From a virus (Duplodnaviria > Heunggongvirae > Uroviricota > Caudoviricetes), in the IMG/VR virus record IMGVR_UViG_2724679058_000010: a stretch of 4,537 nucleotides of DNA. One strand, given 5' to 3'. The position numbers were made by a program, and so were the translations under genes. Below are positions 1-4,289 of the stretch, one piece after another (within the stretch, counting starts at the first letter, position 1; each line of letters begins with the position of its first letter). Under the pieces are notes generated by a model, which saw only the letters and a program-made list of their open reading frames with translations, was not told where the DNA came from and searched no databases.

Positions 1-33
1 TTTTGAACATTTCAGGCTATTTTTCTCGCGTTA

Positions 34-68
34 GGTTCCCGCACAGGTTCCCACGATTTATGGGAACC
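34..68. promoter_or_regulatory. Perfect inverted repeat GGTTCCCA (46-53) / TGGGAACC (61-68) around a 7-bp spacer CGATTTA, plus a third direct copy of GGTTCCC at 34-40; candidate recombinase core-type site or operator upstream of int
   Basis: Read directly from the sequence. Two 8-bp arms flanking a 7-bp spacer is the geometry of tyrosine-recombinase core sites. It lies 20 bp upstream of the int start codon. No T-run follows on either strand, so it is not a terminator. Confidence 0.4.
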
Positions 69-88
69 CGAAATAACGAGGTCGTGTA

Positions 89-1186
89 ATGGCGTACTAT
101 AACATAGAGAAACGACTAAAATCCGATGGCACACCACGCTATCGCTGTAATGTGATTATCAAAGAAAAAGGTGTTATCACTTACAGGGAAAGCAAAACAT
201 TCCCTAAACATGCCCATGCCAAAACATGGGGTACACAGAAAGTGATGGAATTAGATCTATATGGCATTCCATCATCAAATGCAGTTGACGGACTTACAGT
301 CCGTGACTTACTACACAAATATTTAAATGACCCAAATGCCGGAGGTAAAGCAGGTCGTACTAAAAGATATGTGCTGGAACTGCTTATGGATAGTGACATC
401 TCCGCGATCAAACTATCCGAACTGACAGAAAATGACGTAATTGAACATTGTAGGCTAAGAAACAACGCTGGTGCAGGTCCAGCAACAGTCAGCCACGATG
501 TTAGTTATCTTGGCAGTGTTCTGGATGCGGCCAAACCTGTATACGGAATTAATTACACATCAAACCCGGCGAAAAGCGCTCGTCCATATCTACTTAAACT
601 TGGTTTGATTGGTAAATCAAACCGTCGTAATCGTAGACCAGCATCTGATGAACTGGACATGCTCATTGAAGGCCTTCAACAACGATCTACTCATAAATGC
701 TCAAAAATTCCGTTCGTTGATATCCTCAAATTTTCTGTGTGGTCCTGTATGCGAATCGGAGAAGTATGCCGGTTACGATGGGAAGATCTCGACCAAGAAC
801 AAAAATCTATACTCGTAAGAGACAGGAAAGATCCACGCAAAAAGGAAGGCAACCACATGAAAGTAGCCTTGCTTGGGGAAGCCTGGGATATCGTCCAACG
901 ACAGCCCAAAAAATCGGAATTCATTTTTCCATATAACAGCACTTCTGTTACTGCGGGATTTCAGAGAGTAAGAAGCAAATTAGGTATTAAAGATCTGCGA
1001 TACCATGATTTGCGTAGAGAAGGGGCAAGTCGCTTATTTGAGGCTGGCTTTAGTATTGAGGAAGTCGCCCAAGTTACAGGGCATCGTTCATTAAACGTGC
1101 TATGGCAGGTATATACCGAACTGTATCCGAAATCTTTACATAATCGTTTTGAAGAGCTCCAAAAGAGCAGAAATAAGACCTCTTGA
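89..1186 (+). CDS. int: Tyrosine-type site-specific recombinase / phage integrase
   Basis: 365-aa ORF with a GAGG Shine-Dalgarno at 78-81, 7 nt before the ATG. The C-terminal region has the catalytic-domain pattern of tyrosine recombinases (LRYHDLRREGASRLFEAGFSIEEVAQVTGHRSLNVLWQVYTEL, i.e. HxLR ... GHxS ... Y), most reminiscent by eye of Rci/XerC-type catalytic domains. Which integrase subfamily it belongs to is not resolved. Confidence 0.88.
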   Translation: MAYYNIEKRLKSDGTPRYRCNVIIKEKGVITYRESKTFPKHAHAKTWGTQKVMELDLYGIPSSNAVDGLTVRDLLHKYLNDPNAGGKAGRTKRYVLELLMDSDISAIKLSELTENDVIEHCRLRNNAGAGPATVSHDVSYLGSVLDAAKPVYGINYTSNPAKSARPYLLKLGLIGKSNRRNRRPASDELDMLIEGLQQRSTHKCSKIPFVDILKFSVWSCMRIGEVCRLRWEDLDQEQKSILVRDRKDPRKKEGNHMKVALLGEAWDIVQRQPKKSEFIFPYNSTSVTAGFQRVRSKLGIKDLRYHDLRREGASRLFEAGFSIEEVAQVTGHRSLNVLWQVYTELYPKSLHNRFEELQKSRNKTS

Positions 1187-1212
1187 CACTGTTTATCCAT
1201 ACAGTTAAAAAT
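1183..1212 (+). promoter_or_regulatory. Putative sigma70 promoter for the DinI-like gene, overlapped by a weaker upstream LexA-like box
   Basis: Consensus -35 TTGACA at 1183-1188, overlapping the int stop codon. The -10 is less clear; the best candidate is AAAAAT at 1207-1212 with an 18-bp spacer. A second, weaker CTGT-N8-ACAG motif lies at 1189-1204. Confidence 0.4.
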
Positions 1213-1214
1213 AA

Positions 1215-1234
1215 TACTGTATACAAACACAGTA
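1215..1234 (+). promoter_or_regulatory. LexA (SOS) box TACTGTATACAAACACAGTA
   Basis: Matches the E. coli LexA consensus TACTG(TA)5CAGTA at all positions of both half-sites (TACTGT ... ACAGTA) with an A/T-rich spacer. It sits 14 bp upstream of the start codon of a DinI-family gene, and dinI is a classical LexA-regulated gene. Confidence 0.7.
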
Positions 1235-1247
1235 TAGAGGGACTTTT

Positions 1248-1496
1248 ATGCGTATTGAAATCTGTATAGCCAAAGAAAAAATGACTAAAATGCCAACCGG
1301 TGCTGTGGATGCGTTAAAGGAAGAATTAACCCGACGCATCAGTAAACGTTATGACGATGTAGAGGTGATCGTAAAAGCCACCAGCAACGATGGCCTTTCT
1401 GTTACGCGCACCGCCGATAAAGATTCAGCTAAAACTTTTGTTCAGGAAACTCTGAAAGATACCTGGGAGTCTGCTGACGAGTGGTTTGTTCACTAA
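1248..1496 (+). CDS. dinI: DinI-family protein (DNA-damage-inducible protein I homolog), phage-borne
   Basis: 82-aa ORF beginning [11 protein letters not shown] and ending [16 protein letters not shown], which closely parallels the start and the C-terminal ETWESADDWFV signature of E. coli DinI. Shine-Dalgarno AGAGGGA at 1236-1242, and a LexA box immediately upstream. The gene symbol denotes a homolog, not the chromosomal locus. Confidence 0.85.
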
Positions 1497-1562
1497 TTAG
1501 CACGTAAAATCAGTAACGGCTGGAAATCATTCAATACTCGCACTATCGAAAGTTAACCAGCC

Positions 1563-1610
1563 AGCCGCAGTATCCTATCATGACAAGTTACTGCGGCTTT
1601 TTACTTTTTA
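1563..1610 (+). terminator. Putative intrinsic terminator in the convergent intergenic region
   Basis: Perfect 10-bp stem AGCCGCAGTA (1563-1572) / TACTGCGGCT (1589-1598) followed by TTTTACTTTTT. The 16-nt loop is unusually large for an intrinsic terminator, hence moderate confidence. On the minus strand the stem is preceded by an A-tract but not followed by a T-run, so it would be weak in that direction. Confidence 0.5.
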
Positions 1611-1613
1611 TAT

Positions 1614-1901
1614 TTAACGGATCAACATCCAGATCAGCAGACACGCCACCACCGGCACAGCAAAATCCATCAGGCTTGCCACATCCCACGCGCGCGGATC
1701 AAAACCGCCCCACCACGGCATATTCATTCGCTTGCCATGCCCGAACATTTCAATCCAGCGATATTCTGCCTGGGTGTGTTCACGCGCAATGAAGAACGTA
1801 CAACCGGCTATCGCTCCGTAAGCCCAGTTTCCGGTAAAAAGACCAACCAGTATCTGCGCAGCCACAGCACAAAGTGCATGAAGTAAGGGGCTTATATCCA
1901 T
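1614..1901 (-). CDS. Hypothetical small membrane protein (95 aa, about three predicted transmembrane helices), moron candidate
   Basis: ORF preceded by a near-perfect Shine-Dalgarno AAGGAGG (minus strand, 1905-1911), 3 nt before the ATG. Three hydrophobic stretches (LLHALCAVAAQILVGLF, WAYGAIAGCTFFIA, VASLMDFAVPVVACLLIWMLI). No lipobox. GC-rich relative to its flanks. I do not recognise its family. Confidence 0.7.
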   Translation of the reverse strand: MDISPLLHALCAVAAQILVGLFTGNWAYGAIAGCTFFIAREHTQAEYRWIEMFGHGKRMNMPWWGGFDPRAWDVASLMDFAVPVVACLLIWMLIR

Positions 1902-1913
1902 TATTTCCTCCTT

Positions 1914-2192
1914 TCAGCTCCATTCCCGAAGCGGTGTTTCCAGCTCCACGACATAATCAGAGAATACAGAAACATCAAACAAGTCATCAAGAATGCGAAT
2001 GTTGACAAAATAACCATCATTCCGGATACAGACAGGTTCTCCCTCTTCTGTTACCCCTGTTTCTGTGTAGGTGAAACCAATTTCATCAACTAACAGTTTA
2101 TTCTGGAGGTCTTCATCTTCCGCCCAGCCAAGAGATGACAGGAAGGCCTTAAACTGCAGTTTGTCATGAAACTTCAAAGTTAAATCTTTCAT
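1914..2192 (-). CDS. Hypothetical acidic protein (92 aa), translationally coupled to the tail fiber C-terminal segment; possible fiber chaperone/accessory
   Basis: Its ATG (2192-2190) overlaps the stop of the upstream fiber ORF in an ATGA arrangement. The protein is rich in D/E. It has no obvious resemblance to lambda Tfa, which normally ends with a PDIEWPAVP-type motif. Confidence 0.65.
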   Translation of the reverse strand: MKDLTLKFHDKLQFKAFLSSLGWAEDEDLQNKLLVDEIGFTYTETGVTEEGEPVCIRNDGYFVNIRILDDLFDVSVFSDYVVELETPLREWS

Positions 2193-3391
2193 ACGACCTC
2201 TTTTAATTGCCTGTCATTTAATTCTTTATGCCATATGCGGAAATTGCGAATATGGCCAAACAGATGTCGTTCTCCAGTATTCGTCTGCCCTCCAAATCGG
2301 ATATTTTTATCAGCGGTCACGCCATTATATTCACAATAAACTTCATTAACCGCTTTACCATTTGTCACCACATGAAAGTGACCATCAGCTTTTGCAATAC
2401 ATCCAAATGTGGTTTTCTCTGTAAATACATCTGTCGCTGCGCTATTAACATACGAGCCTGAAGGGTTTGACAGACTCATATATAACTTACCACTACCTCT
2501 GTTGATTGCTGCAATTGCTGATTGCCCGGTATTGGCTGCTGCTATATCCCACACGCGGGGTGCGGCGTTTGGTGCAATATCCCAGTTTTTATGAATCTCA
2601 AGTAAAAAAGTAAATGGTAACTTATAAAGATTATTTCTGGTGGGGATACTAACCAAATCACTGGCTCTTGTCGTTGCGCTGCCTCCTGAAATAATAAATG
2701 ATGATACACACGGCCCATTCTCTACTTGTGGGGTGGCAAGATAAATATAGTCACCAGATACTGTTGCCCCACCCTGCTCAGGAGAATACTGTATCTGAGA
2801 GCCTATTTTTAACTCACCATCAATTGCCTGAATCGTTGCCTCTGCAAAAATCCAGCCCGTGGTCTTATCCTTCCTGACTCGTGCCGTAATTCTGCCGGCA
2901 GCACCACCTGTCATATTAATTTCAAGCGTTTGCGTATCAATGTACGCATCGCCAAGAAAAGTTGTTGCACTACCATCATACTTATCAAACCGTATACGTA
3001 ACCTTACCTGTCGTTCTGTTTTAAAACGGCATGAGGTTGTCACGTACTTGTTATCGCCTGAGACATCAACTGACTTTGTTGCAGCAATTGATGCCATATT
3101 AATAGCCGAAGTTTGCCCAACCAGAGAATCGTTGCAGACAAACTTTCCATAAGTAAAACCAAAACTATCCGTCCCGGTTTCGGGCACATCCATGTTTGAT
3201 GACTTCCCCCAGCTGGCTGGACTTTCCGAATTGAGCATGTAGTTCGTTCTTTGTCCCTCAATAAGCAGGCCATCACACTCAAATCGCGGCTCATTAATTT
3301 CCGCCGTTTTCAGTTCGCCAGATTTGTTGATATATGTTGCCGTTGATGCGCGACTGAAATTAACCTGTTTATCACTGGCGACCTGAACCAC
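2189..3391 (-). CDS. Side tail fiber, C-terminal (receptor-binding) segment, with a probable LamG/ConA-like lectin-fold domain at the extreme C-terminus
   Basis: 400-aa ORF. Its frame is open upstream to 3412 (KIAIGDDVV...), and the nearest start is a GTG at 3391 with no convincing Shine-Dalgarno, consistent with a frameshifted continuation of the upstream fiber rather than an independent gene. The C-terminal tail (NIRFGGQTNTGERHLFGHIRNFRIWHKELNDRQLKE) follows the typical LamG closing pattern (F-G-x-I-D-E-V-R-I-Y-N-R-A-L-S-x-x-E-I). Confidence 0.75.
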   Translation of the reverse strand: MVQVASDKQVNFSRASTATYINKSGELKTAEINEPRFECDGLLIEGQRTNYMLNSESPASWGKSSNMDVPETGTDSFGFTYGKFVCNDSLVGQTSAINMASIAATKSVDVSGDNKYVTTSCRFKTERQVRLRIRFDKYDGSATTFLGDAYIDTQTLEINMTGGAAGRITARVRKDKTTGWIFAEATIQAIDGELKIGSQIQYSPEQGGATVSGDYIYLATPQVENGPCVSSFIISGGSATTRASDLVSIPTRNNLYKLPFTFLLEIHKNWDIAPNAAPRVWDIAAANTGQSAIAAINRGSGKLYMSLSNPSGSYVNSAATDVFTEKTTFGCIAKADGHFHVVTNGKAVNEVYCEYNGVTADKNIRFGGQTNTGERHLFGHIRNFRIWHKELNDRQLKEVV

Positions 3392-3405
3392 ATCGTCACC
3401 AATAG

Positions 3406-4251
3406 CTATTTTTTATAGCCCGGAGAAAAACCCGCAATCATATCCAGTGAATCGTTAAACGGTATCCACACATCAGGCAGCGGCGGCACTATATTCGCAT
3501 AGGGCTCTGCAGTCACTTCCGCTGCGGCTTCTGCGCGGTCTGCCGCCTTTTCAGCTCGTGTCGCTGCCGACAGAGCCTCATCCTTTTTCTGCCCGGCCTT
3601 TGTTGCGTCTGCTGCAGCCTCCCGCGCTTTTGTGGTGGCGACTCCGGCATTTTCAGCGGCTGACTCTGCATTACGGCGGGAAGCCTCTTCACTGTCTGCG
3701 GAGGCTTCTTCTGACGCACGGGCATTTGTCTCTGAACGTTCTGCCGCTGTTGCTGCGTTTTGTGCGGCTGTTTTTGAAGAAGCTGCCGCTTTCGCGCTGT
3801 TACCTGCATTCGTCTCTGATGTTTTCGCCGCGTTCCTGGACGATGCCGCTGCTGTTTCTGATTTCTTTGCTGCCGCTGCGCTCTGAGAGGCGGCTTCAGC
3901 GTTGCGTGCCACATCCTCCACCATTACCTCAAAACGACGCAATGCCTCCGGCATGACATCCTCTTCCGTCATGGCACCCAGAAAATCATTCAGCGTCCCC
4001 GGCTTAGAATCCTCATACACGGTGATGGTCCCGGCATGTGAAGGCGGAAAACCTTCAACCAGCAGGATAACGCTGTACTGGCCATACTCGACATCCATGC
4101 TGTAACGTCCGGCTTCATCCGGATTTTCTGAGGCCACCGTGTTCACCACAACCGTGGTGCTGTTACGTTTTGCTTTGAGCTGAATGGTGCAGTTCTGTAT
4201 CGGTTTTCCTGCACCGTCTTTCAGCACACCTGAGATTTTTACTGCTGCCAT
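3406..4251 (-). CDS. stf: Side tail fiber protein, N-terminal anchor domain plus Ala-rich shaft (lambda Stf-like)
   Basis: The translation from the ATG at 4251 (MAAVKISGVLKDGAGKPIQNCTIQLKAKRNSTTVVVNTV...EAGRYSMDVEYGQYSVIL...FPPSHAGTITVYEDS.PGTLNDFL) is nearly collinear with the lambda Stf N-terminus. It is followed by the Ala/Ser/Thr/Glu-rich shaft (AAKTSETNA..., AAERSETNARASE) also found in lambda Stf. The ORF track starts at a GTG at 4257 (MDM...), but the ATG at 4251 is preferred because it has a GGAG Shine-Dalgarno 5 nt upstream and matches the lambda start. Confidence 0.9.
   Translation of the reverse strand: MAAVKISGVLKDGAGKPIQNCTIQLKAKRNSTTVVVNTVASENPDEAGRYSMDVEYGQYSVILLVEGFPPSHAGTITVYEDSKPGTLNDFLGAMTEEDVMPEALRRFEVMVEDVARNAEAASQSAAAAKKSETAAASSRNAAKTSETNAGNSAKAAASSKTAAQNAATAAERSETNARASEEASADSEEASRRNAESAAENAGVATTKAREAAADATKAGQKKDEALSAATRAEKAADRAEAAAEVTAEPYANIVPPLPDVWIPFNDSLDMIAGFSPGYKK
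3409..3414 (-). other. A6 homopolymer (T6 on plus strand) at the frame junction between the two tail-fiber segments
   Basis: Minus strand reads CCG GGC TAT AAA AAA TAG. The downstream frame is offset by -1, so one extra A would fuse the two ORFs. Confidence 0.6.
3486..3900 (-). repeat. Low-complexity Ala/Ser/Glu/Thr-rich coding repeat region (fiber shaft)
   Basis: Protein-level repetition of AAxxSETNA / AAxxAxxAA units. The GCN-rich DNA produces long spurious ORFs in other frames and on the opposite strand. Confidence 0.6.
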
Positions 4252-4262
4252 ATCCACTCCAC

Positions 4263-4289
4263 AAAAAAGCCCGCCTGAACCGGCGGGCT
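4263..4289 (-). terminator. Putative intrinsic terminator downstream of the lom-like gene
   Basis: On the minus strand: 8-bp GC-rich stem AGCCCGCC / GGCGGGCT with a 6-nt loop, followed by TTTTTT (plus-strand A-run at 4263-4268). It lies between the lom stop and the stf ribosome-binding site. Confidence 0.55.

Follow-up and report, generated by a model that had tools for sequence, protein, structure and literature searches.

A conserved small predicted membrane protein of the PHROG 1443 family encoded after phage receptor-binding-protein genes and found alone in bacterial chromosomes

The orf95 locus

The window studied here is a stretch of 4,537 nucleotides from IMG/VR virus record IMGVR_UViG_2724679058_000010 (Caudoviricetes), and its subject is orf95, a gene on the minus strand at positions 1614-1901 that encodes a predicted membrane protein of 95 aa. 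orf95 is a real gene under strong purifying selection. In phages with unrelated tails, members of its family, PHROG 1443, nearly always lie directly after receptor-binding-protein (RBP) genes, and they are also kept as lone genes in the chromosomes of several bacterial genera. The window itself is the end of a lambdoid prophage: it is 99.3% identical to phage mEp460_4F5 over positions 1-4268, and its positions 1500-2300 match, with 100% identity, a prophage next to dusA in uropathogenic E. coli TUM13754.

The gene was delimited from the open reading frame (ORF) listing, with an ATG start, and is supported by a profile match, an AlphaFold2 model and the selection on its codons, all described below. 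Its Shine-Dalgarno sequence, AAGGAGG (1907-1913, minus strand), read from the sequence, stands 5 nt (AAATA) ahead of the ATG, and the initial annotation, which had drawn attention to an ORF of this size with a strong ribosome-binding site, was right on both counts. Immediately before the Shine-Dalgarno sequence is the TGA (1914-1916) of orf92 (1914-2192, minus strand), which encodes an acidic, soluble protein of 92 aa in PHROG 1361, a family of unknown function. The spacer between the two genes is 12 nt long and in frame, and the start of orf92 overlaps the stop of stf by 4 nt.

The side tail fiber gene stf is broken in the window, while orf92 and orf95 are intact. Its C-terminal part (2189-3391, minus strand) carries a GTA head-spike-fibre domain and a ConA-like/Laminin_G_3 domain (phrog_1419 positions 393-793, E=2e-179; NF048003, E=2.6e-15; PF13385, E=9e-6, which is under the gathering score), and its N-terminal part (3406-4257, minus strand) matches PF08400 (E=3e-69). 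The split is due to a 1-nt homopolymer deletion, with six T at 3409-3414 (plus strand) against seven in mEp460; in the alignment, stf of mEp460 is one uninterrupted gene of 2061 nt. In TUM13754, the PGAP annotation calls the N-terminal part a pseudogene. The split is reminiscent of the stf frameshift of laboratory lambda. The 3' end of lom lies upstream of stf on the minus strand, and between the two a terminator scan and folding place a strong intrinsic terminator (4268-4289, minus strand), whose 8-bp stem contains 7 G-C pairs and precedes TTTTTGTGGA.

As had been noted at first sight, the composition of orf95 differs from both flanks. Its GC content is 52.8%, against 41.9% in orf92, 39.3% in the downstream spacer, 43.4% in dinI, 42.3% in int and 42-43% in the C-terminal part of stf, and GC at third codon positions is 55%, against 35-42% in the four neighboring genes. 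The N-terminal part of stf, at 54.6% GC, is close to orf95, and the E. coli genome averages ~51%. It is the AT-rich flanks, rather than an unusual orf95, that make the contrast, with orf95 near the E. coli average.

Conservation of the family

The orf95 protein matches the phrog_1443 profile with E=1.7e-57 (residues 1-95 on profile positions 1-95 of 97), and all 70 of the 70 diverse homologues that we scanned match the same profile. At E<=1e-3, orf95 matches 568 clusters formed at 90% identity, and its profile matches 435 clusters formed at 50% identity among 1.84 billion representative proteins. All relatives listed are nameless single-domain proteins of 58-146 aa, with gene calls as long as 194 aa in a second, word-indexed profile search; neither of the two large profile searches returned anything but further unnamed proteins, with no informative fusions or names. 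Metagenome calls of 190-194 aa that appear to fuse orf92 to orf95 were rejected as gene-calling artefacts, as both inspected cases proved unreal: P0323 takes an in-frame TGA for Trp, and P0332 is a frameshifted call whose junction is scrambled. Only the TGA and four codons (1902-1916) separate orf92 from orf95, which share a reading frame, and such joined calls look like artefacts rather than evidence of readthrough.

Relatives occur in Escherichia, Shigella, Salmonella, Citrobacter, Enterobacter, Leclercia, Pantoea and Aeromonas, and also in Halomonas, Comamonas, Acidovorax, sphingomonads and Desulfovibrio, all of them Gram-negative. Copies from E. coli are 55-68% identical to those of Aeromonas, Comamonas or Leclercia, with synonymous sites saturated, and in comparison with the P22-like copies of JEP4 and Gally the ratio of nonsynonymous to synonymous substitution (dN/dS) is ~0.16. 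Family conservation and dN/dS together exclude a chance ORF. Across the 70 sequences, which reach down to ~31% identity, R40, E41 and W72 are invariant and H8, Q44, A45, E46, R58 and P83 nearly so. The conservation centers on a near-invariant stretch of 36 residues between helices 2 and 3 (R40-E41-x-x-Q-A-E-Y-R-W-I ... M-P-W-W-G-G-F-D ... W72), and among closer relatives AREHTQAEYRWI...G.GKR.NMPWWGGFD.R.W is nearly frozen. Conserved polar residues (H8, Q16, R40, E41 and D79) also lie inside helices or at their ends.

Predicted structure and topology

Given an alignment of 35 sequences, AlphaFold2 models orf95 as three helices (residues 4-23, 26-53 and 74-94) with a mean predicted local distance difference test score (pLDDT) of 92.3. 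This agrees with the three transmembrane helices proposed in the initial annotation, but by Kyte-Doolittle hydropathy only helices 1 and 3 are clearly membrane-like, the hydrophobic part of helix 2 (27-39) being marginal, and for the orthologue in the phage 21 record the depositors entered 'TMHMM: 2 TMDs' (transmembrane domains). Whether the protein spans the membrane two or three times is not fully settled. Helices 1 and 2 carry GxxxG motifs (G20-G24 and G29-G33, respectively). Lys and Arg together number 5.5-5.9 in the helix 2-3 loop, against ~0 in the first loop and 0.6 in the C-terminal tail, which is 1-5 residues long; the N-terminus of orf95 is acidic (MD...). Because the helix 2-3 loop is so rich in Lys and Arg, the positive-inside rule suggests an N-in/C-out topology with the conserved loop at the cytoplasmic face.

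Placement after receptor-binding-protein genes

In the window, orf95 has the last tail gene on one side and the integration module on the other, as first described, with a DinI-like gene before int. That int-adjacent slot does not define the position of the gene across phages: the constant neighbor is an RBP gene, even where the family gene lies inside a tail operon, and int is not. In phages with unrelated tails, the family gene is co-oriented with the RBP genes and directly follows them, and at least six tail architectures have it after RBP genes that are not homologous to one another. In lambda-like phages (phage 21, mEp460 and many E. coli phages) it is preceded by stf and orf92, and in other E. 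coli prophages by stf, an orf92-like gene and a second short fibre-tip gene. A Comamonas prophage has a gpJ-type central fibre of 2520 aa and a 72-aa ORF ahead of it, and a P2/HP1-like prophage of Leclercia an S74-domain fibre of 939 aa, with no spacer between stop and start. In Halomonas phage phiHAP-1 the family gene follows tfa with a 4-nt overlap and a sheath gene comes after it, while in the P22-like phages JEP4 and Gally it stands between the tailspike gene and int, again with a 4-nt overlap in JEP4. A P1-like phage-plasmid of Leclercia has two Laminin_G_3 (lectin-type) fibre genes before it and genes for a LydA-type holin and LydB after it, and in a Salmonella element it lies between two pectate-lyase tailspike genes. 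At further loci from GTDB genomes, the upstream ORFs match tail or tail-fibre PHROGs.

What lies beyond the gene is more variable. In phage 21 (L001 445-3894), the orf95 homologue is followed on the opposite strand by a sitABCD iron/manganese transporter operon, and dinI and int are not there, which illustrates the variable cargo beyond orf95.

The virulent siphovirus ZCEC08 has, directly after an intact endosialidase fibre gene, only a decayed piece of the family gene that carries no annotation (L068 3465-3620, ending in ...RRRANIPWWGGFDWRAWDLPSLLD*), and the same decayed-fragment match is seen in phages HC6, 6947, ST1UNAM and PBM-3. In phages of this type, the gene apparently moved along with the fibre module and was lost later. 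Since ZCEC08 keeps its endosialidase gene intact beside what is only a decayed fragment, the family gene would not be needed for fibre function.

Copies outside intact phages

Lone copies of the family gene occur at three kinds of fixed chromosomal site. In Aeromonas the gene is downstream of a pirin gene (5 genomes, 4 species), in Leclercia it is flanked by prlC and a urea-transporter locus (5 genomes), and in Silvania and Leclercia it is at the ttcA-ompN site (3 genomes). The loci are L003 8001-8309 and, from 6001, L013, L015, L016 and L020; L014, L017, L018, L019 and L022, from 6001; and L012 and L021, from 6001, with L023 from 1358. These copies are syntenic across species, and within groups the proportion of synonymous differences (pS) reaches 0.3-0.5 with dN/dS of 0.04-0.23, the exception being a near-identical pair of A. 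media strains with too few differing sites to inform. Residue 42 is usually Q in the lone copies, replacing H. Upstream of the chromosomal copies we found no recognisable regulatory motif. The ttcA-ompN site is the integration site of Rac in E. coli, and the Silvania and Leclercia copies there may be very old prophage remnants. In two alphaproteobacterial metagenome-assembled genomes (MAGs), a family gene adjoins ligA.

The decayed Rac remnant (trkG-pinR) of E. coli B strains offers a second setting. It holds a truncated C-terminal fragment of stf, an intact orf92 homologue, a tfa fragment and an intact orf95 homologue of 97 aa, WP_000355360.1 (L072 4565-6013 in BL21-Gold(DE3) and L073 3856-5280 in C41(DE3)), so that widely used laboratory strains already have the gene.

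Because lone chromosomal copies have been kept under purifying selection in several genera, we conclude from these comparisons that the orf95 protein can evidently work without a phage partner. The lone copies, the intact copies beside a broken stf and the decay in ZCEC08 argue against a role in the virion or in fibre assembly and for an autonomous function that benefits the cell. The view that the gene is cargo of use to a cell, put forward in the initial annotation, gains from the syntenic copies and from the intact ones in the Rac remnant.

A mosaic module distinct from orf92

The homology that the window shares with phage 21 and related phages stops at 1623, just beyond the stop codon of orf95, and homology to PhiR55_1 and PhiR47_1 ends at 1912-1914, at the orf95 ribosome-binding site. 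DNA like orf95 is present at 3936 places in 1909 of 5426 complete E. coli genomes (~35%), with up to 7 per genome, whereas orf92 is present at 1198 places in 1131 complete E. coli genomes, so that orf95 is 3.3 times as frequent. From the mosaic junctions at both borders and this higher frequency, we conclude that orf95 behaves as an independent mosaic module. A further, non-exclusive reading is that orf95, as a conserved gene on the distal edge of the hypervariable RBP genes, may provide the downstream homology arm when cassettes are exchanged. Its borders, with their exact junctions, agree with that reading, but the constraint at the protein level shows that the product itself is selected.

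In the P1-like element, each of the two lectin-type fibre genes is followed by an orf92 homologue. As orf92 tracks the lectin-type fibre one-to-one, it is likely a better candidate than orf95 for a fibre-specific assembly factor. The alpha/beta fold predicted for orf92 had no decisive match.

Transcription of the cassette

A scan for sigma-70-like promoters on the orf95 strand found none in 1901-2912, although such a consensus scan may miss weak promoters or those of other types, and the nearest sigma-70-like site on that strand lies inside stf (2940-2913). Given the lack of a detected promoter within ~1 kb upstream, the terminator ahead of stf and the 12-nt spacing to orf92, the simplest reading is that orf95 would be co-transcribed with stf and orf92 from the antiterminated late operon. 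Some expression in the lysogen is possible. The initial annotation had placed orf95 in the moron position, and this reading stands in part: the gene is a separate module of distinct composition, but in the window it does not look like a classical moron, as it has no detected promoter of its own, it begins 12 nt after orf92, and no U-run follows the downstream hairpin on its strand.

In phage Gally (L069 3789-3855), the tailspike gene is followed by an intrinsic terminator (3789-3809) and next by a promoter-like site (3826-3855), ahead of the family gene. Such a layout is that of a classical moron and is absent from the window; some members may be autonomous, and consensus scans are weak evidence either way.

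Relation to characterised proteins

As a 'hypothetical protein' of an existing uncharacterised family, PHROG 1443, orf95 was already known. The literature that we searched (the tail-fibre region of phage 21 and mEp460, SEED and RefSeq identifiers, and the topics of exclusion, tailspikes and small membrane proteins) held nothing on the gene, and did not describe the linkage to RBP genes across morphotypes, the abundance in E. coli or the repeated fixation as a lone chromosomal gene. Pfam and NCBIfam gave no match for orf95, and PADLOC-DB 2.0 returned 0 defence families at E<=0.1. When orf95 and the 70 homologues were scanned against 38,880 PHROG families, only phrog_1443 and phrog_34165 were matched, the latter a family of 46-residue C-terminal fragments. 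Pfam scans of the 70 homologues gave only scattered, non-significant matches to membrane families (PhoR N-terminal, TctB, Phage_holin_8), a sequence profile search of the PDB gave a single match with E=0.46, and a fold search of BFVD gave none at E<=0.001.

Several phage proteins resemble orf95 in position or kind. One likeness in setting is to Lom (of the Ail/OmpX type) and Bor, which belong to envelope families with both chromosomal and phage members, lie among tail-fibre genes, are not virion parts and form compositionally distinct mosaic units; lom is present in this very window. Lom is an outer-membrane beta-barrel with its own promoter and is expressed in lysogens. By contrast, orf95 is helical and predicted to lie in the inner membrane, has no promoter of its own detected here, and is unrelated in sequence.

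Cor (of phi80, N15 and HK022) and Llp of T5 are small envelope proteins that block receptors and so exclude other phages; they are encoded beside receptor-binding genes and serve the infected or lysogenic cell. Both are FhuA-specific lipoproteins that travel with FhuA-binding RBPs, whereas orf95 is near-invariant across unrelated RBP types and lacks a basic signal-peptide n-region. A lipoprotein of this kind was considered for orf95 and rejected: the sequence IAGC (31-34) resembles a lipobox, but its cysteine lies 34 residues in, and although C34 is invariant among close relatives, neither it nor the motif is conserved in the wider family.

HK97 gp15 and T4 Imm are small helical inner-membrane proteins that block phage DNA entry and act alone when expressed, gp15 being a moron within the tail gene region. 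P22 SieA is likewise reported to be a small inner-membrane protein that blocks phage DNA entry (PMC10883804). None of the three is similar to orf95 in sequence and each is specific to one ejection machinery, whereas the orf95 family is unchanged in siphovirus, myovirus and podovirus genomes and is also a stable chromosomal gene. More broadly, Imm, Sp, SieA/SieB, Cor, Llp and HK97 gp15 showed no profile similarity in the PHROG scan, on the assumption that PHROGs hold those families.

The P22 gtrABC genes, Sf6 oac and the polymerase inhibitors of epsilon15 and D3 are genes for membrane proteins in the slot between tailspike and int/att, which is the slot of the family gene in JEP4 and Gally. Such serotype-conversion genes are serotype-specific and have their own promoters; orf95, in contrast, is conserved irrespective of serotype and has no similarity to Gtr proteins or acyltransferases. 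Finally, lambda Tfa, T4 gp38 and Mu U come from genes that directly follow a fibre gene and are translationally coupled to it, as orf95 can be, but these chaperones are soluble and co-vary with the fibre tip, while orf95 is a predicted membrane protein that occurs once per RBP block and also without a fibre. In kind, orf95 resembles phage envelope accessory proteins; it is a member of none of these families.

Possible functions

We tentatively propose, as a possibility still short of an even chance, that orf95 has a generic protective effect on the envelope at the inner membrane, or excludes superinfecting phages, without receptor specificity and to the benefit of the infected or lysogenic cell. 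In this preferred reading orf95 is accessory cargo and neither a virion part nor a fibre chaperone. Phages would carry the family as the terminal gene of RBP cassettes, and orf95 would be made with the tail-fibre genes from the late operon. The protein would insert N-in/C-out, with the K/R-rich loop, H8, R40/E41 and D79 at the cytoplasmic face, and might pack or oligomerise through its two GxxxG motifs. The invariant loop could then bind a conserved host partner in the inner membrane or at its cytoplasmic face, with an outcome analogous by role to Lom and Bor and to the exclusion proteins HK97 gp15, T4 Imm and P22 SieA. Superinfection exclusion and abortive infection, both named in the initial annotation, are hypotheses, with no PADLOC model matched.

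Several observations weigh against this proposal. Its main weakness lies in specificity: known exclusion proteins usually act on one receptor or one ejection machine, whereas the family is near-invariant across siphovirus, myovirus and podovirus contexts. Expression from the late operon alone would not protect a lysogen, and lysogenic conversion is unlikely in the large Aeromonas phages (~235 kb) that carry divergent members. If the two-span prediction in the phage 21 record is right, the conserved loop would face the periplasm. None of the known exclusion, defence, holin, chaperone or conversion proteins is similar to orf95, and the long vertical retention of the gene under strong purifying selection in Aeromonas and Leclercia suits a physiological role in the membrane no less than it suits defence.

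A wider form of the proposal would make PHROG 1443 a widespread and so far unrecognised class of phage accessory protein, a universal companion of RBP cassettes in siphoviruses, myoviruses and podoviruses that moves with the modules or bounds them, gives broad protection from incoming phage or envelope damage, independent of the tail, by acting at the inner membrane on a conserved host target, and has repeatedly been domesticated in Aeromonas and Leclercia. We regard this as doubtful.

Another explanation, to which we give a rather low probability, is that orf95 is a physiological inner-membrane protein (in ion or metal handling, homeostasis, or the regulation of an enzyme or sensor) that phages picked up to adjust the host envelope, with no direct anti-phage role. 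The syntenic copies under purifying selection in Aeromonas, Leclercia and Silvania/Leclercia speak for it, as do the ligA-adjacent copies in the two alphaproteobacterial MAGs, the conserved polar helix residues (H8, Q16, R40, E41, D79) together with the GxxxG motifs, and the single-domain architecture and similar size of all members listed. It leaves the consistent placement of the phage copies at the end of RBP cassettes unexplained, however, and the chromosomal loci share no common functional neighborhood; the Silvania copies, at the Rac site, are perhaps prophage remnants, and no characterised membrane family is similar.

Most of the partner RBPs bind or cleave glycans (ConA-like/Laminin_G_3, head-spike-fibre, pectate-lyase, P22-like tailspike and S74/endosialidase proteins), which would suit a factor for surface-polysaccharide conversion, one that inhibits or modulates a conserved step in the undecaprenyl-phosphate-linked synthesis of O-antigen, capsule or enterobacterial common antigen and so alters the glycan receptors of fibres and tailspikes. 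Small hydrophobic polymerase inhibitors and gtr/oac genes sit beside tailspike genes in serotype-converting phages, the family gene occupies the tailspike-to-int slot in P22-like phages, and all its hosts are Gram-negative. We nonetheless consider this explanation unlikely. The protein is near-identical across hosts with very different O-antigens, and several records with the gene give K-12 as host, a rough strain of E. coli without O-antigen. Sphingomonads, which are not known to have lipopolysaccharide, carry members too. A gpJ-type central fibre is also among the partners, and the searches linked orf95 to none of the Gtr, Oac, Wzy and Wzz families, with no Pfam or NCBIfam match to GtrA, acyltransferase or Wzy families for orf95 and none among the 70 homologues.

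The constant spot right after RBP or chaperone genes, often with overlapping stop and start codons, is one normally held by chaperones of the Tfa/gp38 type, and it raises the idea of a membrane-anchored, co-translated factor for the assembly or maturation of tail fibres and tailspikes. This seems improbable. The partner RBPs are non-homologous, and S74 fibres and P22-type tailspikes need no separate chaperone. The protein is a predicted membrane protein without a Pfam or PHROG chaperone match, and it is under purifying selection in chromosomes that have no RBP gene beside it. It is intact next to a truncated or frameshifted stf, and the reverse, a decayed gene next to an intact endosialidase gene, is seen in a virulent phage; the one-to-one tracking of fibre type belongs to orf92 and not to orf95.

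A role in lysis, as holin, antiholin or timing factor, is very improbable: although class I holins have ~95 aa and three helices, which orf95 matches in size and shape, although the family gene directly precedes those for the LydA-type holin and LydB in the P1-like element, and although 1 of 70 members weakly matches Phage_holin_8 (E=0.0036), that match is non-significant given the 70 scans made, significant matches to holin families are absent from both PHROGs and Pfam, the C-terminal tail is almost uncharged (~0.6 K+R) and the conserved part is instead the long inter-helix loop, the window holds no endolysin gene and only the P1-like context has one as neighbor, and a lethal pore former would not be expected to persist as a stable lone gene in chromosomes.

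The orf95 protein is among the most conserved proteins of the otherwise hypervariable host-range region of temperate phages. If it does protect cells or alter the envelope, it would be a very common and unnoticed contributor to phage resistance in clinical E. coli, and this would bear on phage therapy and on efforts to engineer host-range cassettes. Should its main effect be to mark or stabilise the cassette boundary, it would be a useful landmark for predicting and swapping receptor-binding modules. Nothing here demonstrates an unusual mechanism. The family is experimentally tractable, as the classic phages 21 and mEp460 and E. coli BL21 and C41 carry the gene.

The integrase side of the locus

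On the other side of orf95, the window carries a tyrosine integrase gene (89-1186, plus strand; PF00589, E=1e-20) and a DinI-like gene (1248-1496, plus strand; PF06183, E=1e-19; phrog_189), which belongs to the int-side module and is convergent with orf95. A scan of the window against Rfam gave no match. The spacer between the DinI-like gene and orf95 folds into a hairpin at 1563-1598 (-18 to -23 kcal/mol, z ~-2.6; inverted repeat I2). Since its U-run lies on the plus strand only, with none after it on the orf95 strand, the hairpin would terminate the convergent DinI-like gene. Overlapping the start of the hairpin region, at ~1493-1573 on the minus strand, PGAP marks a putative, partial 'capsid protein' pseudogene fragment with an internal stop (equivalent to L071 5994-6074). 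Between int and the DinI-like gene, two LexA-box-like sequences of the form CTGT-N8-ACAG were recognized by eye on the plus strand (1189-1204 and 1217-1232). The DinI-like gene is probably SOS-induced and transcribed toward orf95, ending at the 1563-1598 hairpin.

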